A stretch of DNA of 64,000 nucleotides from Actinomycetes bacterium (GTDB lineage: Bacteria > Actinomycetota > Coriobacteriia > Coriobacteriales > UBA8131): NCBI GenBank assembly GCA_009787085.1, contig WRGR01000044.1:81017-145016 (forward strand), written 5' to 3'. The notes under the pieces were generated by a model. It did no database searches. It worked only from the letters and a program-made list of their open reading frames with translations, and was not told the DNA's origin. Below, one piece after another: positions 28,074-43,254 of this stretch. Positions within the stretch are counted from its first letter, which is position 1; each line of letters begins with the position of its first letter. Position numbers and translations under genes: made by a program.

Positions 28074-28202
28074 TGTCGGTTCTCCTTTGCCGCCAAGGTT
28101 TCCGCATTCCTCACACTATGCTACAATACCGTCCGCGCTTTTTTCAGCAGCAAACGCTTTTGCGTGTGACACGGCGGTAACGCAAAGCGTATTGCGTAGG
28201 TT

Positions 28203-28286
28203 GCCCGGGTGGCGGAATGGCAGACGCGGAGGTCTCAAAAACCTTTGTCGAGAGACGTGTGGGTTCGACTCCCACCCCGGGCACCA
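28203..28286 (+). tRNA. tRNA-Leu (anticodon CAA), long variable arm, CCA encoded
   Basis: GCCCGGGTGGCGGAATGGCAGACGCGGAGGTCTCAAAAACCTTTGTCGAGAGACGTGTGGGTTCGACTCCCACCCCGGGCACCA, a type II tRNA. Confidence 0.9.
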
Positions 28287-28325
28287 TAGTAAAACTACAG
28301 AATTGAGGTAATTCTGGTTGTGCGG

Positions 28326-28354
28326 TGCCCCATGTAGCGTGGGGCATTTGTGTT
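28326..28354 (+). terminator. hairpin with T-rich tail downstream of tRNA-Leu
   Basis: Stem tgcccca / tggggca, 7-nt loop, followed by tttgtgtt. Confidence 0.45.
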
Positions 28355-28400
28355 CGCCTAATTATCGGCTGGAGCAACCATAGCCTTCCTGCCGCCAACA

Positions 28401-28441
28401 AAAGCCACCTCGCCTGCTGGCGAGGTGGCTTTCTTTTTTTC
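28401..28441 (+). terminator. strong rho-independent terminator, probably bidirectional
   Basis: 14-bp stem aaagccacctcgcc / ggcgaggtggcttt, 4-nt loop, then cttttttt. On the minus strand it is preceded by an A-run and followed by ttttgtt, so it could also serve the membrane-protein gene ending at 28465. Confidence 0.7.
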
Positions 28442-28464
28442 TAGGCTATGTTAACGCTTTGCCT

Positions 28465-28926
28465 TTACACGGTTCCTGGATAATTCCGGCTTGGCTTGCC
28501 CTTGCTGGGATCGAAAGTAGAGCTGCCCAAGCCGATTATACCTAGCCAGACAATGGGCAAGAAAATATATAGCACTACCCAAACGTCCTCTTTGTGGAAC
28601 TTCTGGCCGATATTATAGGCCGCGATAGCCATGAAGACATACGCAGCTACTGAGCATATCCAGCCGATAACGGGAATCCATGCCAGCAATATCGCCAAAA
28701 TCAGCCATCCTGGTTGGCCACCAAGCTCCAAGAACTTCCATTGGGCAAAAAACGGCACCCAAGCCCACCAAGTGGGTAGCCCGGCTTTCTGAAAAATGCG
28801 GCTTAGGAAAAAAGCCGCAACACAGTACACCGCCAAGGCGACCACAACCCCGAAAATACCGGCCGTGAGCAAAATGGCTATTGCTTGTTGATCCACCATT
28901 GATACATCATCCTCCTTGAAATCCAC
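28465..28926 (-). CDS. small polytopic membrane protein (DUF5684-like)
   Basis: 153 aa with 4 predicted hydrophobic helices. The motif SRIFQKAGLPTWWAWVPF resembles the DUF5684 family from memory. Confidence 0.55.
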   Translation of the reverse strand: MDFKEDDVSMVDQQAIAILLTAGIFGVVVALAVYCVAAFFLSRIFQKAGLPTWWAWVPFFAQWKFLELGGQPGWLILAILLAWIPVIGWICSVAAYVFMAIAAYNIGQKFHKEDVWVVLYIFLPIVWLGIIGLGSSTFDPSKGKPSRNYPGTV

Positions 28927-29261
28927 ACACCATCATCATTGTCACATACGATCACGAATACCTTACGGCATTATAACATTGGAAAGACCTTTGGTAGTAG
29001 ACCGGGCAAGAAAATTGCAGATTTTTCATAACAGGCATTCGTAGCCAAGGATCGTAGCCAAGGAGGAAGATTGCAAACCAAGCCAGTAATGGCAAATATC
29101 TGAAAATAGCTATGGACAAGCTCTTGGTCTTAAAATATAATACATATATTCCTTATATGTTTTTGTGCTTCATGGATCATCTGTCTTAACAACGCTGCAC
29201 GAAGGGCTTTAGGAGGTTTGCTATGCGAATGCGCTGAGGGAAGAACTCGGAGGGGCCACCG

Positions 29262-29336
29262 ATGTTTCCCGAATGTTTGACCGTATGTTTTATCAGATTC
29301 ACTAGAGACTGTACTGAAAGGAAAACACCGATATGA
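29262..29336 (+). promoter_or_regulatory. SD-preceded 24-codon upstream ORF (MFPECLTVCFIRFTRDCTERKTPI) coupled to cysP by an ATGA overlap
   Basis: GGAGGGG lies 6 nt before the ATG at 29262. There are three TGT Cys codons. The stop TGA (29334-29336) overlaps the cysP ATG (29333-29335). Confidence 0.35.
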
Positions 29337-30376
29337 AATCCAGTATCAGGAGATTCTTGACCTTAGCACTCTGCACGATTACTGCGATAAGCTTGCTAGC
29401 CGGCTGCTCAAATGCCGGAAGCACGGACGCTGAGACAACTGCCAAGACCGTTTCAATTACCAATGTCTCCTATGACCCGACCCGTGAGCTTTTCGAGCAG
29501 TACAACAAGCTATTCGCCGACTATTGGCTGCAAAAGACCGGGCAGACCGTGGAGGTATCCCAATCCCATGGCGGCTCAGGCTCCCAAGCCCGCTCAGTTT
29601 TGGAGGGCAACGAGGCCGATGTGGTCACATTGGCACTGGCTGGCGATGTCAATATGTTGGCCAAGGCCGGCCTGATCGACGGCGGCTGGATAGACGAGTT
29701 CGACAAGAGCAGCTCCCCCTACACATCCACCATCGTCTTCTTAGTGCGCAAAGGCAACCCCAAGGGCATCAAAGACTGGGACGATCTCGTAAAGCCAGAC
29801 ATTCAGGTCATCACCCCCGACCCGAAGAGCTCCGGCGGTGCCCGCTGGAACTTCCTAGCGGCCTGGGCATATGCCGACAAGCTCTACAAGGGCGACGAGG
29901 TGAAGGACAAGGAGTTTTTGCGGCAGCTCTATGCCAATGTCACTGTCTTGGACTCCGGTGCCCGCGGTTCTACCACCACCTTTGTGGAGAACGGCCAAGG
30001 TGATGTTTTATTGGCTTGGGAGAACGAAGCATTCTTGTCGTTGAAGGAGCATCCGGACGATTTCGAGATCGTCATCCCCTCCATCAGTATCCTGGCGCAA
30101 CCCTCTGTGGCCGTGGTCGACGCCAATGCCAGAAAGCATGGCACAGAGGATGTGTCCAAAGCCTATCTTGAGTACCTCTATTCCGACGATGCCCAGCGTT
30201 TGGAGGGCAAAAACTTCTACCGGCCATCAAACCCGGACATCCTCAAAGAGTTCAGCGATACCTTCGACTTGAGCATCGAGCTGGTGAACATCGACGATAG
30301 CTTCGACGGCTGGGATGCGGCAACTGCCAAGTTCTTCGCTGATGGGGCGATCTTCGACCAGATCTACAAGAAGTAG
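29333..30376 (+). CDS. cysP: sulfate/thiosulfate ABC transporter substrate-binding lipoprotein
   Basis: 347 aa with signal plus lipobox LLAGCS. NVSYDPTRELFEQYN..SQSHGGSGSQARSV..EADVVTLALAGDV closely matches Sbp/CysP. Confidence 0.9.
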   Translation: MKSSIRRFLTLALCTITAISLLAGCSNAGSTDAETTAKTVSITNVSYDPTRELFEQYNKLFADYWLQKTGQTVEVSQSHGGSGSQARSVLEGNEADVVTLALAGDVNMLAKAGLIDGGWIDEFDKSSSPYTSTIVFLVRKGNPKGIKDWDDLVKPDIQVITPDPKSSGGARWNFLAAWAYADKLYKGDEVKDKEFLRQLYANVTVLDSGARGSTTTFVENGQGDVLLAWENEAFLSLKEHPDDFEIVIPSISILAQPSVAVVDANARKHGTEDVSKAYLEYLYSDDAQRLEGKNFYRPSNPDILKEFSDTFDLSIELVNIDDSFDGWDAATAKFFADGAIFDQIYKK

Positions 30377-30410
30377 AATCCAGCCGACCAGAGGACGAGA
30401 GGGTGAGCAG

Positions 30411-31262
30411 ATGCCCGGCCTGATGCGCATATTTAAACGGCGCAAGAATAACGTGATCCCCGGCTTCGGCCTGTCAATGGGAATTACGCTGACCATGCTC
30501 AGCCTGGTTGTGCTTATCCCTCTTGCCTCCGTGCTGCTGATTCTCAGTGACTACACTTTTGCACAGTTCTGGCAGGTGATAACAGATCCCAAGACTATAT
30601 CCACTTATCGGGTTAGCCTTGGCTGTGCCGCAATAGCTGCCTTGATCAATGTAGTTTTCGGGGTACTGTTGGCTTGGGTTTTGACCCGCTACAAATTCCC
30701 AGGCAGACGCATTCTGGACAGTTTGATCGAGCTGCCTTTCGCCCTGCCCACTGCTGTGGCTGGCATCGCCCTGACCACGCTTTACTCCGATAAGGGCTGG
30801 ATCGGCAGCCTGTTCGAGAAGATCGGCGTGAAGATCTCCTACACCACCGTCGGCATCACCATCGCCCTGATCTTCATTGGCATCCCCTTTGTGGTGCGCT
30901 CTATTCAGCCGGTGCTAGAGAGCCTTGACGCTGGTTATGAAGAGGCGGCATCCATCCTCGGAGCCAGCAAGGCCCGCATCTTCTTCCGCGTCGTCTTCCC
31001 AGAGATACTGCCGGCCGCCATGACTGGTTTTGCCCTAGCATTGGCCAGAGGCATCGGCGAGTACGGCAGCGTGGTGTTTATCGCCGGCAATATCCCTTAT
31101 GAGACGCAGATCACACCGCTGATTATCATGAACTTCCTAGAACAGTTCAACTATCCGGCAGCCACTTCAATTGCCTTGGTGATGATCGTCTTCTCGTTCG
31201 TCGTGCTGTTCGGGATCAACATCCTGCAGAGCAAGGTGAACAAGGTCGCCCGGGGGAGCTGA
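30411..31262 (+). CDS. cysT: sulfate ABC transporter permease
   Basis: Start taken at MPGLMRIF, after GAGGG (the ORF track extends upstream to 30315). Has the EAA-type loop EEAASILGASK. Confidence 0.9.
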   Translation: MPGLMRIFKRRKNNVIPGFGLSMGITLTMLSLVVLIPLASVLLILSDYTFAQFWQVITDPKTISTYRVSLGCAAIAALINVVFGVLLAWVLTRYKFPGRRILDSLIELPFALPTAVAGIALTTLYSDKGWIGSLFEKIGVKISYTTVGITIALIFIGIPFVVRSIQPVLESLDAGYEEAASILGASKARIFFRVVFPEILPAAMTGFALALARGIGEYGSVVFIAGNIPYETQITPLIIMNFLEQFNYPAATSIALVMIVFSFVVLFGINILQSKVNKVARGS

Positions 31263-31265
31263 GGC

Positions 31266-32075
31266 ATGCGCACAAAAGTAACCAAAGTCATTTTGATCAT
31301 CTTGGGCGGGCTGTTCATTGCCTCGATGCTGATCATGCCCTTGACCACTGTGTTGGTCTATGCCCTGCGTCAGGGACTAACCGTATTCACCTCGGCTATC
31401 ACCGATGACTACGCCATCAAAGCCCTGCAGCTGACCTTGTTGACCTGCTGTATCACTTTGCTGATAAACACCTTCTTCGGCGTGTTTGCGGCCTGGACCA
31501 TTACCAAGTTCCGCTTTCGGGGACGGCAGGTGCTGACCACGCTGATCGACATCCCCTTCTCCATCTCACCGGTAATAGCCGGCCTAGTTTTCATCTTGGT
31601 CTTCGGGCGCATTGGCTGGGCATACCCGTTGGTGGAGTCTTTGGACATCAATGTGGTGTTCGCCGTACCGGGAATTATACTTGCCACTACATTTGTCACC
31701 TTCCCTTTTGTCTCCCGCGAGCTTATCCCAGTGATGCAAGCCCAGGGCCGTGAGGAAGAAGAAGCAGCGGCTTTGATGGGTGCGAGAGGACTGCGGATCT
31801 TCCGCAAGGTCACTTTCCCGCACATCAAGTGGGGGCTGCTTTATGGGGTGATACTCTGCTCCGCCCGGGCGTTGGGCGAGTTCGGTGCAGTGTCGGTGGT
31901 TTCCGGCCATTTGCGGGGTAAGACCAACACTTTGCCGCTACATGTAGAGATACTCTTCAATGAGTTCAAAGTAACGGCCGCGTTTGCTGTGGCCTCGGTG
32001 CTGGTGGTTATCGCCGTCATCGTTTTGATCCTGCGCAATATCGTCGAATACCGGCTAAAGCGGGAGAAAGGCTAG
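31266..32075 (+). CDS. cysW: sulfate ABC transporter permease
   Basis: 269 aa with 6 TM helices and the EAA loop EEEAAALMGARGLRIF. Confidence 0.9.
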   Translation: MRTKVTKVILIILGGLFIASMLIMPLTTVLVYALRQGLTVFTSAITDDYAIKALQLTLLTCCITLLINTFFGVFAAWTITKFRFRGRQVLTTLIDIPFSISPVIAGLVFILVFGRIGWAYPLVESLDINVVFAVPGIILATTFVTFPFVSRELIPVMQAQGREEEEAAALMGARGLRIFRKVTFPHIKWGLLYGVILCSARALGEFGAVSVVSGHLRGKTNTLPLHVEILFNEFKVTAAFAVASVLVVIAVIVLILRNIVEYRLKREKG

Positions 32076-32077
32076 TC

Positions 32078-33136
32078 ATGTATGTCGAACTGAGAAATTT
32101 GAACAAGCAGTTCAATGGCTTTAAGGCCGCCGACAATGTCAGCTTCGGCATTGAGAGGGGCCATCTAGCCGGACTGCTTGGTCCATCCGGCAGTGGCAAG
32201 ACTACCATCCTGCGGATGCTGGCTGGGCTGGAGACTCCTGATTCCGGGGACATCCTGATCGATGGGAAAAGGGTCAACGACATTCCGGCTGCCCGACGCG
32301 GCATCGGCTTTGTTTTTCAAGACTATGCCCTCTTCCGCTATATGACGGTGTTCGGCAACATTGCCTTCGGTTTGACAGTGCAGAAAAAAGAGAAACGCTT
32401 CATCCAAGCCCGGGTGACCGAACTGATCAAGTTGATCGGCTTAGAGGGGCTGGAGAGGCGCCGACCGCACCAGCTTTCCGGCGGCCAGAAACAGCGAGTG
32501 GCCTTTGCCCGGGCGCTGGCACCCAACCCCCAGCTGCTGCTGTTGGACGAGCCCTTTGCGGCCATCGATGCCAAAGTACGCAAGGACCTGCGCTCTTGGC
32601 TGCGAGAAACCATTAACAAGGTTGGCGTGACCAGTATCTTCGTCACCCATGACCAGGATGAGGCAGTAGAGGTGGCAGACGAGATCGTCATCACCAACAG
32701 CGGTCGGATAGAACAGGTCGGCACACCGACGGATATCTACAAAAACCCGCAGACCCCCTTTGCCGCCGGCTTTATCGGCGAGTCCATTGTTGTCTCGGAC
32801 TATGGCCGTCTGCATGGTTTCCAAGCAACCGACGGCTTCGACCAAGCGGTGCTGCGCCCAGAATTCGTGCGAGCAGTGAAGCTTGAGAAAGAGGTCTTCC
32901 CCCATGCCTCCCAGCACGGGACAGTGCAGGAGGTCTACTTCCGGGGCAACGCCTTAGAGCTGCGCATCAACTTGGGCGGGCAGGTGGTCACCAGCCATCA
33001 GTCTTTGGAGGAAGAGGCCTTCAAAGTGGGAGAAGAAGTCAGCGTACTGATCTACCGGCTATACCTTTTGGGTCGCGACAGCGTTCGCCTGATGGAGAAC
33101 GCCTCCATTAAAAGCGATGGGAGCTTCTTTATCTGA
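32078..33136 (+). CDS. cysA: sulfate ABC transporter ATPase
   Basis: 352 aa with GPSGSGKTT, LSGGQKQRVAFARAL, LLLDEP and a C-terminal TOBE-like domain. Confidence 0.9.
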   Translation: MYVELRNLNKQFNGFKAADNVSFGIERGHLAGLLGPSGSGKTTILRMLAGLETPDSGDILIDGKRVNDIPAARRGIGFVFQDYALFRYMTVFGNIAFGLTVQKKEKRFIQARVTELIKLIGLEGLERRRPHQLSGGQKQRVAFARALAPNPQLLLLDEPFAAIDAKVRKDLRSWLRETINKVGVTSIFVTHDQDEAVEVADEIVITNSGRIEQVGTPTDIYKNPQTPFAAGFIGESIVVSDYGRLHGFQATDGFDQAVLRPEFVRAVKLEKEVFPHASQHGTVQEVYFRGNALELRINLGGQVVTSHQSLEEEAFKVGEEVSVLIYRLYLLGRDSVRLMENASIKSDGSFFI

Positions 33137-34824
33137 TGGAACTCAAAGTCGAGCATATCGAAACCGATTTCTTGGTTTTAGGTGGCGGTACTGCCGGCTG
33201 CTATGCCGCACTGACCTTCAGCGCCCGCTCGGCGGCCAAGGTGCTGATAGCCGAGAAGGCCAATATCAAGCGCAGCGGCTGCTTGGCGGCAGGGGTCAAC
33301 GCCCTCAACGCCTATATAACTACCGGCCACACGCCCCAGGACTATGTCGACTATGCCCGCACCGACGCTGCTGGCATCGTTCGTGGCGACTTGCTGATCA
33401 GCATGTCCCGTGGCCTGAACCGGGCAGCCCAGCGCTTGGAAGAGATCGGCCTGACCATCCAAAAGAACCCAGACGGCAGCTACATGGCTCGTGGCGAACG
33501 GAACATCAAGATCAACGGCGAGAACATCAAGCCCCTGTTGGCGGCAGCAGTTGCCAAGCCGCAGGTCACAGTGTTGGAACGGGTGGCCGCCTGCAGCTAC
33601 ATCATGGGGGCGGACAAGCGGGTGGCCGGTGCTTACCTGGTAGGAGTGGACGATCCAGTTCTCTATGTCATCAGCGCCCGCGCCGTGCTTTGTGCCACTG
33701 GCGGTGCTGCCGGGCTTTACCGTCCGAACAACCCGGGCTTCTCTGGCCATAAGATGTGGTACCCGCCCTTCAATACCGGGGCCGGCTTAGCCATGGGTAT
33801 CCAGGCCGGTGCCGAGATGACCTCCCTGGAGATGCGCTTCGTCGCCTTGCGCTGCAAAGACACCATTGCCCCCACCGGCACACTGGCACAGGGGATGGGG
33901 GCTAGACAGATCAACTCACTTGGCCGAGTTTATGAGCAAGACTATGGCCTCTCGACCTCAGCACGCCTGTATGGGACGATAACCGAGAACTTGGAGGGAC
34001 GCGGCCCTTGTTTTCTCCGCACAGTCGGAGCCACTTCGGAGCAGGATGCCGAGATCGAGAAGGCCTATCTGAACATGGCACCGTCGCAGACCCTGCGCTG
34101 GCTGGAGAGCGGATTGCCGCCCAGCCAGAAGAACGTGGAGATCGAGGGTACTGAACCCTATATTGTCGGCGGCCATACCGCGTCCGGCTATTGGGTGGAC
34201 ACCCATCGCGAAACCACGCTTAAATGCCTGTTTGCTGCTGGTGATGTGGCCGGCGGCTGTCCGCAAAAATATGTCACCGGTGCCTTGGCAGAAGCCGAGA
34301 TAGCCACCGAAGCGGCAATCAGCTACATGTCAGATGAGCTGAAACAAACAGATATCGAGCAAACACAGAGGATCAAGGTTTGGCTGGAGTCGCATCTGAT
34401 GCGCACGATGCCTGAAACTGGCGACACTGTTGACGGCTTGGAAGAAGAGATGCAGGCCCTAATGGATGAGCAGGCCGGAGGGATTACCAGCAATTATCAA
34501 TATTCACAAGCATCGCTGGAACAGGCGGCAGCGGGTATCTACAGTTTGAGCAAACGTGCCAAGGCACTTTCGGTACCAGACATGCCGGAGCTGACCTATC
34601 TCTTGGAGCTGCGCGAGCGTTTGATCGTCTGTCGCTCTTTGCTTGCCCACCTTGCTGCCCGCAAAGAGAGCCGTTGGCCGGGCTTTGCAAAACATGCCGA
34701 CTACCCCGAACAAGATGACAGTTTTCGGTGCTATGTCAATTCCAAACTGGAAGACGGTAAGGTCAAGGTGCTGTTTAGAGACTTAGTGGAGGAAGGTGAG
34801 GTTTATGAGCATCATGATCGATGA
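33136..34824 (+). CDS. aprA: adenylylsulfate (APS) reductase alpha-subunit-like flavoprotein
   Basis: 562 aa with FAD fold DFLVLGGGTAGCYAA. Overall resembles the AprA branch of the fumarate reductase/succinate dehydrogenase flavoprotein family. Context: between cysA and cysDN, followed by a small 2x[4Fe-4S] protein. Confidence 0.7.
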   Translation: MELKVEHIETDFLVLGGGTAGCYAALTFSARSAAKVLIAEKANIKRSGCLAAGVNALNAYITTGHTPQDYVDYARTDAAGIVRGDLLISMSRGLNRAAQRLEEIGLTIQKNPDGSYMARGERNIKINGENIKPLLAAAVAKPQVTVLERVAACSYIMGADKRVAGAYLVGVDDPVLYVISARAVLCATGGAAGLYRPNNPGFSGHKMWYPPFNTGAGLAMGIQAGAEMTSLEMRFVALRCKDTIAPTGTLAQGMGARQINSLGRVYEQDYGLSTSARLYGTITENLEGRGPCFLRTVGATSEQDAEIEKAYLNMAPSQTLRWLESGLPPSQKNVEIEGTEPYIVGGHTASGYWVDTHRETTLKCLFAAGDVAGGCPQKYVTGALAEAEIATEAAISYMSDELKQTDIEQTQRIKVWLESHLMRTMPETGDTVDGLEEEMQALMDEQAGGITSNYQYSQASLEQAAAGIYSLSKRAKALSVPDMPELTYLLELRERLIVCRSLLAHLAARKESRWPGFAKHADYPEQDDSFRCYVNSKLEDGKVKVLFRDLVEEGEVYEHHDR

Positions 34825-35119
34825 TGCCGCATGCAGGGGCTGTGGCAGATGCACTGCAGTTTGCCCCGGCAGCCTAATAAGCCTGAACAAAAACGGGAAG
34901 GCCTGGATACGCCGTCCGCAACGTTGCTGGGGATGCGCTTCTTGTGCCAAGGAATGCCCAGTTGAGGCTATCGCCCTCTACCTTGGTGCAGACATCGGTG
35001 GTGCGGGCGGGCGGATGACCGTGGCACAGGAAGGCTCCCAGCTGACTTGGACGCTACGGATGCCTGACGGCTGCGAGCAAAGCATCGTGGTCAACCTTCA
35101 AGATGCCAACAGCTATTGA
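34805..35119 (+). CDS. aprB: AprB-like small ferredoxin subunit
   Basis: 104 aa from the ATG at 34805 (MSIMIDD), with CRGCGRCTAVCP and CWGCASCAKECP. Overlaps aprA-like by 20 nt. Confidence 0.6.
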   Translation: MSIMIDDAACRGCGRCTAVCPGSLISLNKNGKAWIRRPQRCWGCASCAKECPVEAIALYLGADIGGAGGRMTVAQEGSQLTWTLRMPDGCEQSIVVNLQDANSY

Positions 35120-35142
35120 GCAGCTGCTGAGGAGACTAGCGA

Positions 35143-36039
35143 ATGTCGATGACACATTTAGACCGGCTGGAGGCTGAGGCCATCTATATCTTCCGTGAGG
35201 TCGCCGCCGAATGCGAGCGGCCAGTGATGCTTTACTCCATCGGCAAAGACAGCTCGGTGATGCTGCATTTGGCATTAAAGGCCTTTTATCCCGAAAAACC
35301 GCCCTTCCCTTTCTTGCATATCGATACCAGCTGGAAGTTCAAAGAGATGATCGCCTTCCGCGACCGCCGCGCCCAAGAGCTGGGTATCCGGATGCTGGTA
35401 TACCGCAACGAGAAGGCTTTGGCCGAAGGCATCAACCCCTTTGACCATGGAGCGGCCTACACCGATATCGTCAAAACCCAAGCCCTGAAGGATGCTCTCA
35501 CCGAGTACGGCTTCACAGCGGCATTCGGCGGCGGTCGCCGGGACGAGGAGAAGTCCCGTGCCAAAGAGCGGATATTCTCTTTCCGCAGCGCCAGCCATGC
35601 TTGGGATCCCAAAAACCAGCGTCCCGAAATGTGGAAGCTCTACAACACGCGCATCAACAAGGGCGAGAGTATGCGGGTCTTCCCCATCTCCAACTGGACA
35701 GAGGCAGATATCTGGCAGTATATCCGGCGCGAAGACATCCCTATTGTGCCACTTTACTTTGCGGCCGTCCGCCCAGTAGTGGAGCGCGACGGCAACATTA
35801 TCATGGTCGACGACGAGCGGTGCCGCCTTAGACCCGGAGAAACACCGCAGCTGGAGAAAGTGCGCTTCCGTACCTTGGGCTGTTATCCTTTGACTGGTGG
35901 GGTGAGGAGCGAGGCTGATACTTTGGACGCGGTGATCTCCGAAACCTTGGCCGCAGTGACCAGCGAGCGAACCAGCCGAGTGATCGATAACGAAGCATCA
36001 GGCAGCATGGAGCGCCGCAAACGGGAGGGCTACTTTTAA
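35143..36039 (+). CDS. cysD: sulfate adenylyltransferase subunit 2
   Basis: 298 aa with [24 protein letters not shown] (PP-loop) and [12 protein letters not shown]. Confidence 0.92.
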
Positions 36040-37652
36040 TGGGTGAGCCAAGCAACGGACTTTTGAAACTAATAACCTGTGGCAGTGTCGATGATGGCAA
36101 GTCGACGCTGATTGGGCATATCCTCTATGATGCCAAGTTGTTGTATGCAGACCAAGAGCAGGCCTTGATGCTGGATAGCCAAGTCGGCAACAGGGGCGGT
36201 AGCATCGATTATTCTTTGCTGCTGGACGGCCTGATGGCCGAGCGCGAACAGGGCATCACCATTGACGTGGCCTACCGCTACTTCACCACCGCTGCTCGCA
36301 GCTTCATCGTTGCCGACACGCCAGGACACGAGGAATACACTCGCAATATGGCGGTAGGTGCATCTTTTGCCGATTTAGCAGTGATACTGATCGATGCCAG
36401 CCAGGGTGTTTTGGCACAGACTCGCCGCCATGCCCGCATCTGCGCACTGATGGGTATCCGCTTCTTTGCCTTCGCAGTGAACAAGATGGACTTGATCGGC
36501 TATCAGCAACGGGCATTTCAAAGCGTCAGCGACGAGGTCGAAGCATTAGCCGCCGAGCTTGAGCTGCAAAACGTGGCGATCTTCCCAGTTTCAGCCACCG
36601 AAGGCGACAACGTCACTGTTGCCTCCCCAAATATGCCATGGTACAACGGCCAAACTTTGCTTGGCCACCTAGAGAGCGTCGATATCTCCGGTGCTGCCCC
36701 GGAAGTCGGCTTCTATCTGCCAATACAGCGGGTCAGCCGCCCTAACCAGAGCTTTCGGGGTTTTCAAGGGCAAATCGAGTGCGGCCAAGTGAAAGTGGGT
36801 GACACGCTCACAGCGCTGCCTTCCGGGCAGATGGCACTGGTCAAGGCGGTCTTTATCGGTGAACGAGCAATGCAGGCCGCTGCGGCCGGGCAGGCTGTGA
36901 CCGTCCAACTAGACCGCGAGGTCGATGTTTCCCGGGGCTGCGTGCTGGAAAGAAACTCCGGTCTGAGAATCGCCAAGGAATTCCTAGCCACGCTGCTTTG
37001 GATGGACGACCAAGACTTGGTCAGCGGCAAGGATTACTGGGTCAAAGTTGGCACTAAGCTACTGCCAGCCATTGTTACCGGCATCCGCCACAAAGTGGAC
37101 ATCAACAACGGCAAGCTGCTTCCGGTCGACTCCGTGGCCAAAAACGAGATCGTGCTTTGCGAAGTCGTGCTTTCGGAGCCGGTCGTTCTCGATGCGTTCA
37201 GGCTACATAAAACACTGGGCGAGCTGATCCTGATCGACAGGGTGAGCCACGCCACTTCGGCCTGTGGCGTGATCGAGAGCGTCGGGGAAGACGACGATGG
37301 TGGCGTATTGTTGCAAGATGGTGGCCTAAAGCTGCATATTCAGCTATTTGACAGCTTTTACTATCATCCAGATATCCATACTGTATTGCGTCATAGTCCA
37401 CCGCCAGTCACTTATTTCAAGGGCGATACCCTCCCCTTGCAGTCAGTCGGCTATTGTTACCCGTCAGACTTCGACTTGGTGGGCAACAATTTGACCGCCA
37501 ACATCCGCCAGTCCAAGTTTATCGGCTTCGCTGCTCCAAGCTTAGACCTACCGCTGTTGGACGCGAACGGCTTAGAGCTGGGGGCTGGTCAACCCCGTGA
37601 CTTTGGTAAATATCGGCGTGTATCGGTTTGGGAGACGGACTATGAGATTTAA
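36039..37652 (+). CDS. cysN: sulfate adenylyltransferase subunit 1 (GTPase) with an uncharacterised ~100-aa C-terminal tail
   Basis: 537 aa with GSVDDGKST, DTPGHEEY and NKMD G-motifs. The tail carries no APS-kinase P-loop. Confidence 0.9.
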   Translation: MGEPSNGLLKLITCGSVDDGKSTLIGHILYDAKLLYADQEQALMLDSQVGNRGGSIDYSLLLDGLMAEREQGITIDVAYRYFTTAARSFIVADTPGHEEYTRNMAVGASFADLAVILIDASQGVLAQTRRHARICALMGIRFFAFAVNKMDLIGYQQRAFQSVSDEVEALAAELELQNVAIFPVSATEGDNVTVASPNMPWYNGQTLLGHLESVDISGAAPEVGFYLPIQRVSRPNQSFRGFQGQIECGQVKVGDTLTALPSGQMALVKAVFIGERAMQAAAAGQAVTVQLDREVDVSRGCVLERNSGLRIAKEFLATLLWMDDQDLVSGKDYWVKVGTKLLPAIVTGIRHKVDINNGKLLPVDSVAKNEIVLCEVVLSEPVVLDAFRLHKTLGELILIDRVSHATSACGVIESVGEDDDGGVLLQDGGLKLHIQLFDSFYYHPDIHTVLRHSPPPVTYFKGDTLPLQSVGYCYPSDFDLVGNNLTANIRQSKFIGFAAPSLDLPLLDANGLELGAGQPRDFGKYRRVSVWETDYEI

Positions 37653-38880
37653 CACCAAGCTCTTGCATGGGAAATTCCCGTCTGACTGGAGCGGCTCAAC
37701 GTTGCCGCCTATCTATCAGGTGTCGGCCTTTGCCCATGAATCAGCAGAGAGGCTGGAAAAGGTATTTTTGAACAAGGAGCCGGGGTTTGCCTACACTCGC
37801 ATTGCCAACCCCACAGTCGCTGCCTTTGAGCGGCGAATGGCACTGCTGGAGGGCGGCATGGATGCCGTCAGCTGCTCTTCCGGTATGGCAGCGGTGTCTA
37901 TGGCCTTGTTGAATATCTTGTCTACCGGCGACGAGATCATCTCCAGCAGCAGCCTTTTTGGCGGTACGTTCGGGCTGCTTGCCAATTTCGAGCAATTCGG
38001 CCTCCACACCAACTATCTCAGCGAGCTCAATGCCGAGACAGTGGAGGCAGCGTTGACACCGCATACCAAGGTTATCTTCGCCGAGCTTATCGGCAACCCC
38101 AAGCTGGATGTAGTCGATATCCGTGAGCTGGCATACGTCGCTGAAAGGCATGGTCTGCCCTTGGTGATCGATGCCACTACTGCCACCCCGGCGCTGGTCC
38201 GCCCCTTGGAGCAAGGCGCCCACATCGTTGTACACTCCTCATCCAAGTACATCAACGGCAGTGGCGATGCCATTTCCGGCGTTATCGTCGACGGCGGCCG
38301 CTTCGATTGGGACTTTGAGAAATACCCGGCCTTGGCCGGCTACCAGCAGATGGGTAAGTTCGCCTTCACCGCTCGCCTACGCCAAGATATTTGGCGGAAC
38401 TTCGGTGCCTGCCTAGCTCCCCAAAACGCTTGGCTGAACTGCGTTGGCTTGGAGACCTTGGGGCTGCGGATGGAAAGACTCTGCAAAAACTCACTGGCAC
38501 TGGCCGAGCATATCGAGCAAAACCTAGGCATGGCAGTCAACTACCCGGGCTTAAAAAGCAACTCATACCATGCTCTGATCGCCAAGCAAATGGACGATGG
38601 CTTGGGCGGAGCCATCCTAACGCTGCGTACCGGCTCCAAAAAACGGGCATTCAGCCTGATTGATAACCTCAGATATGCCAAGATCGCCACCAATATCGGT
38701 GATGTGCGCACTTTGGTACTTCATCCTGCCTCGACCATTTATGCCCATTCCGACGAGCAGACCATGCAACTATCAGGAGTTTATGACGATCTTGTGCGTA
38801 TCAGCGTCGGGCTGGAGGACATCGAGGACCTGATCGAAGATTTCACTTTGGCTTCTATTGTAATGAACGGAGACAGATAG
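37642..38880 (+). CDS. metY: O-acetylhomoserine (thiol)-lyase family PLP enzyme
   Basis: Start at MRFNTKLLHG (the track ORF begins at 37597). AYTRIANPT, and the PLP lysine in HSSSKYINGSGD. Overlaps cysN by 11 nt. Confidence 0.85.
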   Translation: MRFNTKLLHGKFPSDWSGSTLPPIYQVSAFAHESAERLEKVFLNKEPGFAYTRIANPTVAAFERRMALLEGGMDAVSCSSGMAAVSMALLNILSTGDEIISSSSLFGGTFGLLANFEQFGLHTNYLSELNAETVEAALTPHTKVIFAELIGNPKLDVVDIRELAYVAERHGLPLVIDATTATPALVRPLEQGAHIVVHSSSKYINGSGDAISGVIVDGGRFDWDFEKYPALAGYQQMGKFAFTARLRQDIWRNFGACLAPQNAWLNCVGLETLGLRMERLCKNSLALAEHIEQNLGMAVNYPGLKSNSYHALIAKQMDDGLGGAILTLRTGSKKRAFSLIDNLRYAKIATNIGDVRTLVLHPASTIYAHSDEQTMQLSGVYDDLVRISVGLEDIEDLIEDFTLASIVMNGDR

Positions 38881-38881
38881 C

Positions 38882-39745
38882 ATGGAAACCGACTATAAAT
38901 CCCTGAAAGAGGGCGGCTTTATGCGCCAAGTGCAGAAGAATAACTTTTCTGCACGCATCAAGGTAGTAGGCGGCAGGCTGACGGCCGAGCAGCTCGTTGC
39001 CATTTCGGCGATAGCGCGCAAATATGGAGCCGGTCATGTGCACCTGACCTCGCGGCAAAGCGTGGAGATCCCCTTTGTCAAACTGAAGGACGTGCCGGCA
39101 GTGAGGGCCGATCTAGAGGCCGGCGGCCTGAAGTCCAGCGTTTGTGGCCCGCGGGTGCGCACCGTCACCGCTTGCCAAGGCAGCGAGATCTGCCCGTCCG
39201 GATGCATTGACACCTACCCGTTAGCACTGGCTATCTCTGAGCGTTACTTCGGGCGGCAGCTGGTCCACAAGTTCAAGTTCGGGGTGACCGGTTGCATGAA
39301 CAACTGCCTGAAGGCCGAGGAGAACGATATGGGCATCAAAGGCGGCTATATTGTGGAATGGCTGCCCGAGCAATGCAATCTCTGCGGTGTCTGCATCAAG
39401 GCCTGTCGTGAGGGGGCGCTCGCTCAAACCGATAGCGAGGTTCTGATCGATCAGGAGAAATGCAACAACTGCGGCCGCTGCGTCAAAGCCTGCCCCTTCG
39501 ATGCCTGGCACGGCGAGGCGGGCTACATACTATCCTTTGGCGGTATTTTCGGCAACCGGATTGCTGTTGGCCAGCAGCTTTTGCCCATCATCAGTGACGA
39601 GCAGACCTTGTTTCGGGTGGCCGATGCCGTGCTGGCCTTTTTCGATGAACACGCCGAGGCTTGTGAACGCTTCCGCTCGGCAATCGACCGGGTGGGCTGG
39701 GATGTTTTCCAAGCCGCAGTGGAGGGAGCTTACCATGGCCGATAG
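38882..39745 (+). CDS. small siroheme-type sulfite reductase with an inserted 2x[4Fe-4S] ferredoxin domain
   Basis: 287 aa with siroheme-cluster motifs C-x5-C (CQGSEIC) and C-x3-C (CMNNC), plus CNLCGVCIKAC and CNNCGRCVKACP. Confidence 0.75.
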   Translation: METDYKSLKEGGFMRQVQKNNFSARIKVVGGRLTAEQLVAISAIARKYGAGHVHLTSRQSVEIPFVKLKDVPAVRADLEAGGLKSSVCGPRVRTVTACQGSEICPSGCIDTYPLALAISERYFGRQLVHKFKFGVTGCMNNCLKAEENDMGIKGGYIVEWLPEQCNLCGVCIKACREGALAQTDSEVLIDQEKCNNCGRCVKACPFDAWHGEAGYILSFGGIFGNRIAVGQQLLPIISDEQTLFRVADAVLAFFDEHAEACERFRSAIDRVGWDVFQAAVEGAYHGR

Positions 39746-39992
39746 GGTTGAGTTTGCGATAGACGAGACGGTAGACATCACCGACGTGGTTTGCCCAGTG
39801 ACCTTCGTCAAGGCCAAGGTAGCCTTGGAAGAGCTGGATGCCGGGCAGATCCTGGCCATCCGCTTAAGCGATGGCGAGCCGGTGGTCAATGTACCCCGAA
39901 GCCTCAAAGACGAGGGGCATCAGGTGTTGAAGCTAGCTGACAACTGTGACGGTACTTATACATTGCTAGTAAGAAGAATGGAGGAAGATTAG
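39735..39992 (+). CDS. TusA/SirA-like sulfur-carrier protein
   Basis: 85 aa from the ATG at 39735, with active-site-like DVVCPVTFVKAK near the N-terminus. Overlaps the reductase gene by 11 nt. Confidence 0.7.
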   Translation: MADRVEFAIDETVDITDVVCPVTFVKAKVALEELDAGQILAIRLSDGEPVVNVPRSLKDEGHQVLKLADNCDGTYTLLVRRMEED

Positions 39993-40199
39993 ATGAAACT
40001 AACTGTAGCGGGTAATTTAAAAGAATTTGCGGACGGTCTGACCGTGGCCAAGCTGATCGAACTGGAACAGGTGGAGACTCCGGAGTACATCACCGTTTCG
40101 GTAAACGATGAGTTTATTGCCAGCGACTCCTTTGAGTCCCATGTTTTGGCCGATGGTGATGCTGTGGAGTTCTTGTATTTCATGGGCGGCGGCCGCTGA
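39993..40199 (+). CDS. ThiS/MoaD-family ubiquitin-like sulfur carrier ending ..FMGGGR
   Basis: 68 aa with beta-grasp length and pattern (..DGDAVEFLYFMGGGR). The stop overlaps the ATG of the E1-like gene (TGATG). Confidence 0.75.
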   Translation: MKLTVAGNLKEFADGLTVAKLIELEQVETPEYITVSVNDEFIASDSFESHVLADGDAVEFLYFMGGGR

Positions 40200-41011
40200 T
40201 GGCCTTCAGCAACGAGCAGCTGGAGCGCTACTCCCGCCACATTATCTTAAAAGAGGTCGGTGCCAAGGGGCAAAAGAAGCTGCAAGCAGCCAAGGTACTG
40301 ATCATCGGAGCAGGCGGCCTCGGGGCACCGGCAGCACTCTACCTAGCTGCTGCCGGTGTGGGCACGATCGGCATTGCCGATGCTGACGCGGTAGACCTCT
40401 CCAACCTGCAACGCCAAGTGATCCACGCCACGCCGGACATCGGCAAGGCCAAGGTGTGCTCGGCCAAGCAAAGCATGCAGGCCATCAACCCCGAGGTGCA
40501 GGTCAACACCTACCAATGCTTCGTGACGGCCGCCAACGTCATGGAGCTTGTCGCCGACTACGACTTCGTATTGGACGGTACCGACAACTTTCCGGCCAAG
40601 TTCCTGATCAACGATGCCTGTGTGCTATCTGCCAAGCCCTTCAGCCACGCCGGCATTATCCGCTTCCAAGGTCAGCTGATGACTTACGTGCCCGGCCAGG
40701 GGCCCTGCTATCGCTGTGCCTTTCAAAACCCACCGCCAGCTGATGCCGTACCCACTTGCCGCCAGGCCGGGGTTATCGGTGCCATGGGCGGGGTAATAGG
40801 CTCGTTGCAGGCCATGGAAGCAGTGAAGTACATCATCGGCCAAGGCGATCTGCTCTGCGGCTCCCTGCTGACCTTTGATGCTCTGAAGATGGAGTTCCGC
40901 AAAATCAAGCTGCCGCGCCGCGACACCTGTGCCGTCTGCGGCAGCCAACCCACCATCTTGGCAGCGTTTGACTACAAGCAGGCAGCTTGCGACCTGAAGC
41001 CTGCGACCTGA
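40199..41011 (+). CDS. ThiF/MoeB/HesA-family E1-like adenylyltransferase
   Basis: 270 aa with RYSRHIIL, GAGGLGAP nucleotide loop and two CxxC pairs (CYRC, CAVC). No rhodanese domain. Confidence 0.85.
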   Translation: MAFSNEQLERYSRHIILKEVGAKGQKKLQAAKVLIIGAGGLGAPAALYLAAAGVGTIGIADADAVDLSNLQRQVIHATPDIGKAKVCSAKQSMQAINPEVQVNTYQCFVTAANVMELVADYDFVLDGTDNFPAKFLINDACVLSAKPFSHAGIIRFQGQLMTYVPGQGPCYRCAFQNPPPADAVPTCRQAGVIGAMGGVIGSLQAMEAVKYIIGQGDLLCGSLLTFDALKMEFRKIKLPRRDTCAVCGSQPTILAAFDYKQAACDLKPAT

Positions 41012-41085
41012 GAGGCGGCCATTGAAGTCAGTGTGGCCAGCAACCTGCGCTTCAGAAGCCCATAACCCGAGAGGCGGTTTGTAAG

Positions 41086-41583
41086 GTGAAACTGCAGATC
41101 AAGCAATGTGATATCGATACTATCATCGCCCACGCCCAAGCTGAACTGCCCAATGAAGCCTGCGGCTTGGTGGCTGGCCGGGTGGATGCTGGTGGTAAGG
41201 CCAGGGGCGGTAATGTGAGTGTCAAGGGTGGATATGCGGAGGCCAAGGGCAGGGGCGCCGAGGCCGACACAGACGGGTTTTTTGTGGTGGAGAAAGTCTA
41301 TCTGCTCTCCAACATTGACCAAAGCCACGAGCACTTCTCCATCGACCCCAAAGAGCAGTTGGCGGCCATCAAAGACATGCGATCCTTGGGGCTTGCCCCC
41401 TTGGGCAACTTCCATTCCCACCCGGAAACACCAGCCCGCCCCTCCGAAGAGGACATCCGCCTCGCCCATGACCGCAACGCCGTCTATCTGATAGTGTCTC
41501 TAGCAGCAGAGCAGCCAGTCTTGAAAGCCTTCCGCGTGATCGACGGAGTAGCCTCAGCAGTGGCGGTGGAGGTTTTGGGCTGA
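41086..41583 (+). CDS. JAMM/MPN+ metalloprotease (Mec+/HcyD-like)
   Basis: 165 aa, GTG start. It has the full JAMM signature: E (NEACG) ... HSHPETPARPSEED (HxH-x7-S-xx-D). A Gly/Ala/Lys-rich ~35-aa insertion follows the Glu. Confidence 0.8.
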   Translation: MKLQIKQCDIDTIIAHAQAELPNEACGLVAGRVDAGGKARGGNVSVKGGYAEAKGRGAEADTDGFFVVEKVYLLSNIDQSHEHFSIDPKEQLAAIKDMRSLGLAPLGNFHSHPETPARPSEEDIRLAHDRNAVYLIVSLAAEQPVLKAFRVIDGVASAVAVEVLG

Positions 41584-41919
41584 AACTGGGTGAGCGCTGA
41601 ACTAAGGTAAAAACCCGGTCGATCCTTTCAATTTCCCTATTTCGATGCCCATGCTTTCTCCTCCGATCAGAGCCTATTCAGCAGTTTCGTTATTTGCCGC
41701 CGCTCCCGAGCGACCTATTCATCAATCTCGGTACTACGTAGTTCAGCTTCCTATAATCAAGTGCGGCGATTTCCCAATAGCAGGTGCAATAAAATTTGTT
41801 AATTTTGTGCTTCTTTGTATATTGGAATAGATTGATTATTTGTTTCTTGAGCGGTTCAATGGTTTTTACCTCCCGGTACTGCTTCGCAACAAGCGACTAT
41901 AGCTACAGCCGCTTTCTGC

Positions 41920-43254
41920 TTATCCTAGTCTTTTTGACCAGCAGCAGCTCTTGGCCTTTTTGCCGCTGCCGCAGGGACAGGGGTCGTTGCGACCTACTCC
42001 TTGCCATCTTGCCGCCATTTGGGTGCGGCAGTTGGCCATTATCGCTGCTAGCGACCGGCCACGTCTGGCCTCTGTGCTGATCGCTTGGAGCAGTGGCTGG
42101 ACGTGAGAGAAGAAACGCCGCAAGCCGCCACAGAGGTAGTTCAGGCCGGGCCGGCCGTCGTCTGCTAGGCTGAAGCGGTCTTTAGGACAGGCACCGTTGC
42201 AAACCTTAAGCCATGGACAAACGCGGCATTGCTTAGGCAGCGAGTCATGCTTGTTCTTGCCGAAGCCGACTTGCTGGGCTGAGTCCACCAGTTCCACCAG
42301 CTCCGAGCTTTGGATATCGCCCAGCCGATGCTCAGGGTTCACGTAGTGGTCGCAGGAGTAGATGCCGCCGTCGGCCTCTAAGACCAAGGCACGGCCACAT
42401 CGTGGTGCCATCCAGCAGAGGCCGGCACTGCCGCCCGACCAAACACGTGCCGTCTCGGCAAACAGCTGGATGTCCAACTTGCCTAGATCGTGGCATGCCC
42501 ATTCATCGAACACGGTGCATAGGAACTCGCCGTAGCCCTCGCTGCTGACACTTTCCTCAGCTAGGCTGCCATCGCTTTCCCTGCGGACAATCGGGATGAA
42601 CTGGATCCAGCCGGTATCCAAGTTGCGTAGTGCCCGATAAACACCCAAAGGATCGTTGACCGAAGCCGAGCTCACCGTGCAGAGCAGGTCGGGGTGAACA
42701 CCATGTGTCCGCAGACGTTTGGCAGCATCGACGACTTGCTGATAGCTGCCCTTGCCATTGCGGTCCAGCCGGTTACGGTCATGCACCAGTTGGCTGCCGT
42801 CGATGCTCAGCCCAACGTCAAAATGAGCATCGGCCAAAAAGCCGCACCACTCGTCATCAAGAAGCAAGCCGTTGGTCTGGAGGTTGTTCCAGCACGTCCA
42901 ACCTTCGGGAAGGTATTGCTGTTGCAGCCCAACTGCCCGCCGGTAGAAGTCCAGCCCGGCCAAAGTCGGCTCACCGCCATGCCAGACAAAGTTCAGCTCG
43001 GGGCCCGGACTGGCCTGGACGTACTGGCAGACAAAGCGCTCCAACAGCTCATCGCTGATCCGTGGCTGCGAAGCAGCATCTGGCTCCCCAACATCCTTCA
43101 AATAGTAACAATAGCTACAGCAAAGGTTACAGCGCGCTCCCACCGGCTTGGCCATTATCGAGAAGGGTTCGACCGATTTCTTGGACAACAGCAACGGCGA
43201 CGACACAGGCGACGGCGCAACCGACGACGATGCGGGTGGCTGGACAGACAGCAC
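41920..43254 (-). CDS. anaerobic sulfatase-maturating enzyme (radical SAM/SPASM) with a C-terminal SEC-C motif
   Basis: 444 aa with CNLCCSYC radical-SAM triad, HGGEPTLAG, LQTNG, DGGIYSCDHYV, CRVCPWLKVCNGACP and LNYLCGG. The tail is NDPCPCGSGKKAKSCC. Confidence 0.85.
   Translation of the reverse strand: MLSVQPPASSSVAPSPVSSPLLLSKKSVEPFSIMAKPVGARCNLCCSYCYYLKDVGEPDAASQPRISDELLERFVCQYVQASPGPELNFVWHGGEPTLAGLDFYRRAVGLQQQYLPEGWTCWNNLQTNGLLLDDEWCGFLADAHFDVGLSIDGSQLVHDRNRLDRNGKGSYQQVVDAAKRLRTHGVHPDLLCTVSSASVNDPLGVYRALRNLDTGWIQFIPIVRRESDGSLAEESVSSEGYGEFLCTVFDEWACHDLGKLDIQLFAETARVWSGGSAGLCWMAPRCGRALVLEADGGIYSCDHYVNPEHRLGDIQSSELVELVDSAQQVGFGKNKHDSLPKQCRVCPWLKVCNGACPKDRFSLADDGRPGLNYLCGGLRRFFSHVQPLLQAISTEARRGRSLAAIMANCRTQMAARWQGVGRNDPCPCGSGKKAKSCCWSKRLG

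Follow-up and report, generated by a model that had tools for sequence, protein, structure and literature searches.

A stretch of 64,000 nucleotides (nt) from an Actinomycetes bacterium (contig WRGR01000044.1; hereafter the window, meaning the whole stretch analysed) carries 14 consecutive plus-strand genes at positions 29333-41583. These genes probably constitute an assimilatory sulfate reduction operon of the type found in Clostridia, coupled to homocysteine synthesis through a protein thiocarboxylate as in Wolinella succinogenes. The cluster adds one more example to a known operon type, whose gene neighbourhood was described in 2006 and whose chemistry was shown in Wolinella in 2011. Its local peculiarity is a predicted AprAB-like reductase, related to the enzyme MtPAPSR, in place of CysH and CysC.

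An earlier note on this DNA had proposed a route running from uptake through CysDN, the AprAB-like enzyme, a small sulfite reductase (Sir) and a carrier thiocarboxylate to MetY, and the overall logic of this route appears to hold. Sulfate would be imported by Sbp-CysTWA and converted to adenosine 5'-phosphosulfate (APS) by CysDN. Sulfite would be released by a soluble, probably ferredoxin-fed AprAB-like flavo-iron-sulfur enzyme, either from APS or, if an APS kinase is encoded elsewhere, from 3'-phosphoadenosine 5'-phosphosulfate (PAPS), and would then be reduced by the small siroheme Sir. The extra C-terminal residue of the ThiS-like carrier would be trimmed by the JAMM protease, the exposed glycine would be adenylated by the E1-like enzyme, and the adenylate would be converted to a thiocarboxylate with reduced sulfur supplied as free bisulfide or by a TusA-cysteine relay. 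MetY would add this thiocarboxylate to O-acetylhomoserine, and the JAMM protease would finally release homocysteine. The chemical steps, the role of TusA and the electron donors proposed here are drawn from the Wolinella work and from gene context.

Identification of the gene cluster

The cluster was delineated from the list of open reading frames (ORFs) and from NCBIfam and Pfam scans of the window. Gene identities, motifs and tight packing are read directly from the window, and the synteny is conserved in related loci. The genes are listed below (aa, amino acids; FAD, flavin adenine dinucleotide; PLP, pyridoxal phosphate).

29333..30376, plus strand: Sbp/CysP, sulfate ABC substrate-binding lipoprotein (NF008022 438.6 bits, cutoff 288; TIGR00971 411.8 bits)
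30411..31262, plus strand: CysT, sulfate ABC permease (TIGR02139 376 bits, cutoff 246)
31266..32075, plus strand: CysW, sulfate ABC permease (TIGR02140 354.5 bits, cutoff 329)
32078..33136, plus strand: CysA, sulfate ABC ATPase (TIGR00968 336.8 bits, slightly below the cutoff of 342.75)
33136..34824, plus strand: AprA-like FAD subunit, assimilatory APS/PAPS reductase of the MtPAPSR clade (NF005331 810.8 bits, cutoff 557)
34805..35119, plus strand: AprB-like small 2x[4Fe-4S] subunit, 104 aa (best PDB match 8a8o_C, 84.7 bits)
35143..36039, plus strand: CysD, sulfate adenylyltransferase small subunit (NF009214 514.5 bits, cutoff 413)
36039..37283, plus strand: CysN GTPase subunit, residues 1-415 (TIGR02034 509 bits over residues 9-412, cutoff 336)
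37284..37652, plus strand: orphan C-terminal domain of CysN, residues 416-537 (conserved motifs LFDSFYYHPDIHTVLRHSP and KYRxVxVWExDYEI)
37642..38880, plus strand: MetY-like, O-acetylhomoserine sulfhydrylase-like PLP enzyme (PF01053 346 bits; TIGR01326 401 bits, below the cutoff of 495)
38882..39745, plus strand: small siroheme Sir, 287 aa, with an inserted 2x[4Fe-4S] ferredoxin domain (NIR_SIR_ferr, NIR_SIR, Fer4)
39735..39992, plus strand: TusA/SirA-type sulfur-transfer protein, 85 aa (PF01206 68 bits; Cys in DVVCPVTF)
39993..40199, plus strand: ThiS-fold sulfur carrier, 68 aa, C-terminus FMGGG-R (TIGR01683 56.5 bits, cutoff 37.45)
40199..41011, plus strand: ThiF/MoeB E1-like adenylyltransferase, 270 aa (PF00899 276.5 bits over residues 11-244)
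41086..41583, plus strand: JAMM/MPN+ metalloprotease, 165 aa, GTG start (PF14464 83.7 bits; E(24)...HSHPETPARPSEED motif)

These assignments bear out what the earlier note had claimed about a 14-gene, single-strand cluster at this position and about the identity of all 14 genes. CysA is retained despite its score because its position in a cysPTWA set backs the call. Public gene calls for the same contig agree with the ORFs of the window from sir through the JAMM gene, and the window's proteins are on deposit as MCL1880167-75. The 13 junctions measure, in nt and in gene order, about +31/34, +3, +2, -1, -11/-20, +23, -1, -11, +1, -11, 0, -1 and +74. Most of them had been described as tight: ten of the 13 are indeed overlaps or gaps of 3 nt or fewer, and the six junctions that had been singled out all overlap, including thiS/thiF by 1 nt.

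We searched the 64 kb by tblastn in all frames and detected no cysC, cysE or cysK; the sole match to the cysH query was cysD, because cysD shares the PAPS_reduct domain. None of these four genes was found either among the approximately 50 window ORFs scanned with NCBIfam or Pfam, in agreement with their reported absence from the window. The queries were E. coli sequences, and we consider them valid probes because the same queries detected cysK, cysE and cysC in related loci, which is their sole validation. From the canonical assimilation set of the E. coli type, only CysDN and the transporter are present in the 64 kb, and the remaining components are absent from the window. A 404-aa PALP-family protein left of the window, beside purine catabolism genes, was judged not to be CysK on account of its size and its neighbours.

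The operon type is widespread in Clostridia

At least 521 relatives of the AprA-like protein occur in bacterial contigs sampled at one genome per species, and our comparisons use the best 80 of them (59-68% identity). Their hosts are nearly all Clostridia (Ruminococcus, Lachnospiraceae, Oscillospiraceae, Clostridium), with a few termite-gut Fibrobacterota and Synergistota metagenome-assembled genomes (MAGs). Synteny was assessed by tblastn of the 14 window proteins against these 80 related loci, and the resulting counts are lower bounds because many loci end at contig ends. The block aprA-aprB-cysD-cysN is adjacent in almost all of the 80 loci. The module sir-tusA-thiS-thiF-jamm was found in 40 loci, 33 of which also possess metY; tusA directly follows sir in all 40, and metY is immediately upstream of sir in 32 of the 33 loci that have both. 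The full set of 14 genes lies within 12.4-15.5 kb in 16 of the 80 loci and on a single strand in 15 of these 16. Seven complete loci, including that of Roseburia porci, display the exact gene order of the window, and another seven, including that of Ruminococcus callidus, display the permuted order cysPTWA-metY-sir-tusA-thiS-thiF-jamm-aprAB-cysDN.

The recurrence of the same 14 genes in 16 of the 80 loci indicates that this arrangement is not due to chance. The packaging of the whole route in one block had been considered unusual, but this operon type recurs in many Clostridia and the neighbourhood was catalogued as early as 2006 (PMC1779556). Its recurrence across related loci suggests that one-block packaging is recurrent and selected rather than an oddity of the window.

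The carrier module

The proteins of the carrier module retain the features expected for their proposed functions. Among PDB structures, Sir best matches the F420-dependent sulfite reductase Fsr, over the C-terminal half of that enzyme (7np8, 119.9 bits), with which its cluster/siroheme cysteines (Cx5C...Cx3C) align, and the TusA cysteine (DVVCPxTF) is invariant in 42 relatives. In all 43 relatives of the carrier, the C-terminus presents an invariant VEFLYFMGGG followed by a variable tail, which is one or two residues long in 40 of them (Q, R, SF, AF, QF and others). The glycine tail of the window's carrier is masked by one extra residue (R). Such an ending, with FMGGG fixed and the residues after it variable, is the mark of a tail that a protease takes off, as expected for maturation by JAMM. 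The JAMM protein of the window has an intact motif, Glu...HxHx7Sx2D (HSHPx7Sx2D), and matches 2kks with 126.9 bits; both NEACG and HSHPETPARPSEED are conserved with its relatives and with 2kks. It also carries a Gly/Ala/Lys-rich insertion of 28 residues (GGKARGGNVSVKGGYAEAKGRGAEADTD; approximately residues 36-63, at about 41191-41274), which is absent from all ten aligned relatives and from 2kks.

The E1 protein consists of a ThiF domain only, without a rhodanese domain. Its best NCBIfam model is that of MoeB (371.8 bits), and the motifs GAGGLG, two CxxC and PTCRQAG were read from its sequence. The combination of a rhodanese-free E1 with an ever-present TusA matches the rule stated for this type of neighbourhood in PMC1779556. 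MetY keeps its PLP lysine (SSSKY).

A thioredoxin gene (about 105 aa, CxPC, PF00085 84.7 bits) is located between tusA and thiS in approximately 33-35 of 42 relatives (loci L003, L009, L043, L076 and others in our numbering). No thioredoxin gene is present at the corresponding junction of the window, 39992/39993, where tusA and thiS abut, and the closest relatives of the window (L002, L006, L008, L010 and L024) also lack one there. A dedicated thioredoxin beside TusA would be consistent with a relay by persulfide or acyl disulfide, for which a reductant is required.

Alternative roles of the cluster

Several observations weigh against a cluster devoted to homocysteine synthesis by a carrier thiocarboxylate. 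Among solved enzymes, MetY is closer to the bisulfide-using enzyme of T. maritima (7kb0, 324.5 bits) than to the MetY of W. succinogenes (3ri6, 264.9 bits), such that it could simply use free sulfide; its use of a thiocarboxylate is proposed because of gene context and not because of its sequence. In addition, metY is absent nearby in seven of the 40 loci with the carrier module, and about 16 related loci have a cysK no further than 10 kb from the aprA-like gene, which suggests that the carrier may serve more than homocysteine. The same observations favour a broader function, in which the cluster is a general sulfate-assimilation operon and Sir, TusA, ThiS, ThiF and JAMM act as a sulfide-trapping relay for several acceptors, including cysteine through CysK or CysM as for CysO/CysM of M. 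tuberculosis, with MetY being one client or a user of free sulfide. The leaders of these operons are also in line with such a function: leader peptides with Cys codons precede sbp in 14 of 38 relatives (2.0 +/- 1.3 in shuffled sequences), and no S-adenosylmethionine (SAM) riboswitch or methionine T-box was found in the window or in six relatives. Nevertheless, we consider a general relay doubtful, given that MetY is the sole sulfur-accepting enzyme of the window's operon, that metY almost always directly precedes sir, and that the Wolinella precedent ties exactly this gene set to homocysteine. The stronger statement that cysteine is bypassed entirely is not supported: the cysK genes of about 16 related loci and the Cys leaders of 14 out of 38 speak against it, and 64 kb cannot show a bypass. 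A CysK gene outside the window could provide an outlet for the sulfide that Sir produces.

Two further functions were considered and rejected. The cluster might act as a sink for electrons, or reduce sulfate/sulfite in a dissimilatory-like way, instead of serving biosynthesis, because the AprAB-like reductase and the Fsr/Dsr-like Sir have architectures of the dissimilatory type. Hydrogenase mutants of C. thermocellum also induce a related cluster strongly and their sulfide rises, which was read as redox balancing (PMC5209896). We find this very unlikely: Sat, Qmo (QmoABC), DsrAB, DsrC and DsrMK are all missing from the scanned window ORFs, and the scores against TIGR02061 and TIGR02060 are below cutoffs. 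Moreover, activation relies on the GTP-consuming CysDN, import is ATP-driven, and a carrier protein and MetY are biosynthetic parts. It is even less credible that ThiS, ThiF, TusA and JAMM serve thiamin, molybdopterin or tRNA thiolation and are neighbours of the sulfate genes by chance. NCBIfam does name the carrier ThiS (TIGR01683) and the E1 MoeB (NF006444, below cutoff), but no thiG, thiH, thiC, moaE or ttuA/ncs6 turned up in the window ORFs that were scanned, the genes are always linked to sir and often to metY in the 40 loci, and a masked GGG-X tail with a JAMM protease is typical of carrier systems for cysteine and methionine.

Nucleotide specificity of the AprAB-like reductase

Both subunits of the reductase scored below the cutoffs of the dissimilatory models (302.8 bits for the AprA-like subunit against TIGR02061, cutoff 641.75; 55.1 bits for the AprB-like subunit against TIGR02060, cutoff 135.65). 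The closest solved relative of the AprA-like subunit is the alpha subunit of MtPAPSR (8a8o_A, 560.7 bits vs 266.7 for A. fulgidus AprA), and the best PDB match of the AprB-like subunit is the beta subunit of the same enzyme (8a8o_C, 84.7 bits), with an alignment that begins at its MSIMIDD start. MtPAPSR of Methanothermococcus thermolithotrophicus (PDB 8A8O) is the one characterised member of the clade to which the window enzyme belongs, and its activity with PAPS exceeds that with APS about 16-fold (PMC10322725). Its authors attribute this preference to Lys120, Arg121 and Ser122, and point out that the 3'-phosphate would collide with a Gln conserved in true APS reductases (PMC10322725). Residues E121-R122-N123 of the window protein align with these PAPS-trait residues (K120-R121-S122), and the tripeptide is x-R-N in all 80 relatives, with Lys at the first position in only two. 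The x-Arg-Asn triad suggests that this bacterial clade fits neither the PAPS nor the APS reference.

Since the alpha and beta subunits are both closest to the PAPS-preferring MtPAPSR, the substrate may be either nucleotide. The absence of cysC from the window and from 79 of the 80 related neighbourhoods (a single one contains it) leans towards APS, and we slightly favour an enzyme that reduces APS directly. The claim that PAPS is bypassed entirely is thus plausible but unproven: the lack of cysC in the window and in nearly all relatives speaks for it, and the proximity of the enzyme to MtPAPSR speaks against it.

Alternatively, the AprAB-like enzyme could be a PAPS reductase, with an APS kinase and an adenosine 3',5'-bisphosphate (PAP) phosphatase encoded elsewhere, in which case PAPS would not be bypassed. 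We regard this as a serious although somewhat unlikely possibility. It is backed by the alpha subunit, which scores far higher against MtPAPSR than against A. fulgidus AprA, and by the beta subunit, which is likewise nearest to MtPAPSR. The trait Arg is invariant in 80 of 80 relatives, and the smaller Asn replaces the clash-causing Gln of true APS reductases. In C. acetobutylicum, CAC0104 is an AprA-like protein. It shares an operon with cysC (CAC0103) (PMC3828012), and the sole characterised homologue of the window enzyme is the one with the roughly 16-fold higher activity on PAPS (PMC10322725). On the other side, the trait Lys is a Glu in the window, which is a reversal of charge, and cysDN adjoins aprAB almost everywhere. 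Operons of the PAPS route usually include cysC (cysDNC of E. coli, the cysH operon of B. subtilis), but there is none in the 64 kb and it occurs in only one of 80 related neighbourhoods.

The C-terminal domain of CysN

CysN is 537 aa long and has no APS-kinase domain. Its residues 416-537 are not such a kinase and have no Pfam match at all. This C-terminal segment of about 120 aa is conserved in 61 of the 80 related aprAB-linked loci and presents the near-invariant motifs LFDSFYYHPDIHTVLRHSP, ANIR and KYRxVxVWExDYEI. Its AlphaFold model is all-beta with medium confidence (pLDDT 72) and showed no fold match in the PDB. Among 1.84 billion proteins, the domain matched 67 representative clusters, was C-terminal in the full-length ones and displayed no alternative architecture; only five word-index matches were obtained. 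The CysN of these operons carries a conserved domain without known relatives. As a speculation, this domain may couple CysDN to the AprAB-like reductase.

A more far-reaching, tentative proposal combines these observations. The bacterial AprAB-like enzymes of this clade might be ferredoxin-linked assimilatory APS reductases acting directly on APS from CysDN, possibly by docking or channelling at the all-beta domain of CysN, which would make APS kinase and CysH dispensable. Sir might in turn hand partly reduced sulfur over to the TusA cysteine in a DsrC-like manner, giving a persulfide that would move on to the adenylated carrier and be resolved by the thioredoxin encoded between tusA and thiS in most relatives. 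Taken jointly, these elements are possible rather than probable. If true, they would amount to an uncharacterised third bacterial route of assimilatory sulfate reduction, with sulfur remaining protein-bound from sulfite to homocysteine. In many gut Clostridia, and in at least one genome from the Coriobacteriia, the partner of CysDN is a reductase whose sole characterised relative prefers PAPS, and no APS kinase is encoded nearby. The nucleotide specificity also affects how metagenomic "aprA" hits are read, as these may be assimilatory rather than sulfate-respiring.

Transcription and leader sequences

The cluster had been described as one apparent transcription unit, and it is likely to form a single transcript. 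The region 28000-43000 contains only one strong promoter-like site, located upstream of sbp, and the leader that follows it contains further candidate elements:

29113..29141, plus strand: promoter-like site of the sigma-70 type, TGGACA-17-TATAAT, located some 190 nt before sbp and matching the consensus at 11 of 12 positions
29143..29159, no strand assigned: palindrome CATATA-TTCCT-TATATG directly after the -10 hexamer, read from sequence
29262..29336, plus strand: upstream ORF (uORF) of 24 codons (MFPECLTVCFIRFTRDCTERKTPI), three of them for Cys, with a ribosome-binding site (GGAGGGG) of its own and a TGA stop that overlaps the sbp ATG

Internal promoters or terminators might have split the cluster. 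The internal promoter-like and terminator-like sites are weak and their counts are no higher than in shuffled sequence, with the total number of sites equal to the shuffle expectation, which speaks for an undivided unit. A simple scan revealed no convincing plus-strand terminator within or just past the cluster. Upstream, a tRNA-Leu (28203-28286) and a strong terminator (28401-28432) are followed by a divergent membrane-protein gene, which isolates the cluster on its left side. Downstream lies the convergent gene of an anaerobic sulfatase maturase, with its end at 41920.

The leader of the window contains a mini-ORF of four codons (29223-29237) in addition to the 24-codon uORF and the palindrome, and a regulatory role of these features is suggestive only. 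The palindrome is a possible repressor operator and may be that of a CymR/Rrf2-type repressor; TATGAA/TTCATA words are enriched in the related leaders around their promoters. When we searched the leaders of relatives for ATG-initiated uORFs of 8-45 codons containing CC or CxC, such Cys-rich uORFs were found upstream of sbp in 14 of 38 relatives, compared with 2.0 +/- 1.3 (maximum 5) in dinucleotide shuffles. Examples of the encoded peptides are MLNRSNLRIPVRFRCCTDLEG and MKNLIGKIFLSERCRMCCCF. Loci with Cys-rich uORFs (R-C-C, CxC) comprise L006 (about 145 nt upstream of sbp), L001, L004, L008, L011, L012, L034, L057, L058 and others. These short uORFs look like cysteine-sensing leader peptides and resemble the cysteine-responsive polycysteine uORF attenuators of mycobacteria (bioRxiv 10.1101/834739); the window's own uORF is a weaker candidate than those of its relatives. 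Their Cys codons point to control of the operon by cysteine supply and not by methionine, and suggest that ribosome-sensed cysteine control extends beyond mycobacteria. We detected no riboswitch or T-box in the 190-nt leader of the window at either gathering or relaxed Rfam thresholds, and this leader does not fold better than shuffled sequences (z = +1.48).

Comparison with known systems

In the Wolinella pathway, the metalloprotease HcyD reportedly removes the C-terminal Ala of HcyS, after which HcyF is reported to adenylate HcyS and bisulfide derived from Sir to give the thiocarboxylate. MetY then reportedly adds this thiocarboxylate to O-acetylhomoserine and HcyD frees homocysteine; the Wolinella cluster is also reported to encode the enzymes leading from sulfate to sulfide. 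This HcyS/HcyF/HcyD/MetY/Sir pathway (Krishnamoorthy & Begley 2011) is cited as established in PMC8191291, PMC6225789 and PMC5764234. The window shares with it a ThiS-fold carrier with a masked Gly, a JAMM protease and an E1-like enzyme, as well as a MetY and a sulfite reductase clustered with genes for sulfate activation and reduction. The window differs in its sulfite-forming step, which is assigned to an AprAB-like flavo-FeS enzyme, in its Sir, which is a small Fsr-C/Dsr-like protein with a ferredoxin insert, in its MetY, which is not specially close to 3ri6, and in its host, a Coriobacteriia MAG.

The gene content also resembles the sulfur-assimilation neighbourhood ThiS/MoaD-JAB-E1-SirA described by Iyer, Burroughs & Aravind in 2006 (PMC1779556, Table 1 row 4e), which was found in Wolinella, Geobacter and several low-GC Gram-positives, and for which the authors noted an E1 that "always lacks" a rhodanese domain and a SirA that is "always" there. 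The window shares with this row a ThiS-like protein, a JAB protease, a rhodanese-free E1 and an obligatory SirA/TusA, together with the sulfate ABC transporter, ATP sulfurylase, sulfite reductase and O-acetylhomoserine sulfhydrylase. However, row 4e lists a PAPS reductase of the CysH family and an adenylylsulfate kinase (PMC1779556), whereas the window has neither and carries the AprAB-like pair instead.

The resemblance to MtPAPSR extends to the closest solved relatives of both subunits, to a short beta subunit and to an assimilatory context. MtPAPSR, however, works with Sat and is accompanied by an APS kinase and a PAP phosphatase, whereas the window enzyme is partnered by CysDN with no kinase in the 64 kb, and the trait triad is K-R-S in MtPAPSR but E-R-N in the window.

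CAC0102 of C. acetobutylicum is an O-acetylhomoserine sulfhydrylase, and the operon to which it belongs is not known to have a carrier module. That operon, CAC0102-0110, resembles the window in combining a sulfate ABC transporter with cysDN in a co-regulated block that responds to sulfur and redox conditions (PMC4669385, PMC3828012), but it retains cysC (CAC0103) (PMC3828012), which the window lacks. In C. thermocellum, Clo1313_0108-0125 is co-regulated as one block whose induction raises sulfide output, and this cluster uses a thioredoxin-dependent APS reductase of the CysH type where the window uses an AprAB-like pair (PMC4676874, PMC5209896). Finally, the CysO/CysM/Mec+/MoeZ cysteine pathway of M. 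tuberculosis (Burns et al. 2005, cited in PMC6225789) is similar in that a PLP enzyme receives sulfide from a carrier thiocarboxylate and the amino acid is then freed by a JAMM protease. In M. tuberculosis the acceptor is O-phosphoserine, which CysM uses to form cysteine, and the E1 (MoeZ) has a rhodanese domain, in contrast to the E1 of the window, which has none and is accompanied by TusA.

Host and flanking genes

UvrB (25195-27264) is 77-80% identical to proteins of Coriobacteriales and Eggerthellaceae MAGs, which indicates that the host is probably a member of the Coriobacteriia; the deposited proteins carry the label of an "Actinomycetia bacterium" MAG. Among the 80 best relatives of the cluster, not one bears the label Actinomycetota, which suggests a transfer across phyla. 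The Coriobacteriia host may thus have received its Clostridia-like cluster by an old cross-phylum transfer. A comparison of the tRNA-Leu side with the downstream flank revealed no att-like repeats, and GC content at third codon positions is similar in the cluster (0.68) and in its flanks (0.71), which indicates that any transfer was not recent. A recent island insertion was rejected on the same grounds, as there were no att-like repeats and no compositional signal.

The gene convergent to the cluster (41920-43254, minus strand) encodes an anaerobic sulfatase-maturating radical SAM enzyme (TIGR03942, 422 bits); no sulfatase gene was seen among the scanned window ORFs. Further downstream, only residues 58-283 of a 763-aa ORF (44978-47269, plus strand) match methionyl-tRNA ligase (186 bits, cutoff 587). 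This ORF, near an operon assigned to the methionine pathway, may be a MetG-like fusion, a paralogue or a mis-joined ORF. The gene content of positions 1-24000 appears to be that of an anaerobe. This region encodes xanthine dehydrogenase subunits with a permease, an NAD-linked formate dehydrogenase (FdhA with NuoF/NuoE-like subunits), a reductase of the dimethyl sulfoxide (DMSO)/selenate family with its chaperone and an ECF/CbiQ transporter, and RNase P RNA is located at 5970-6342.

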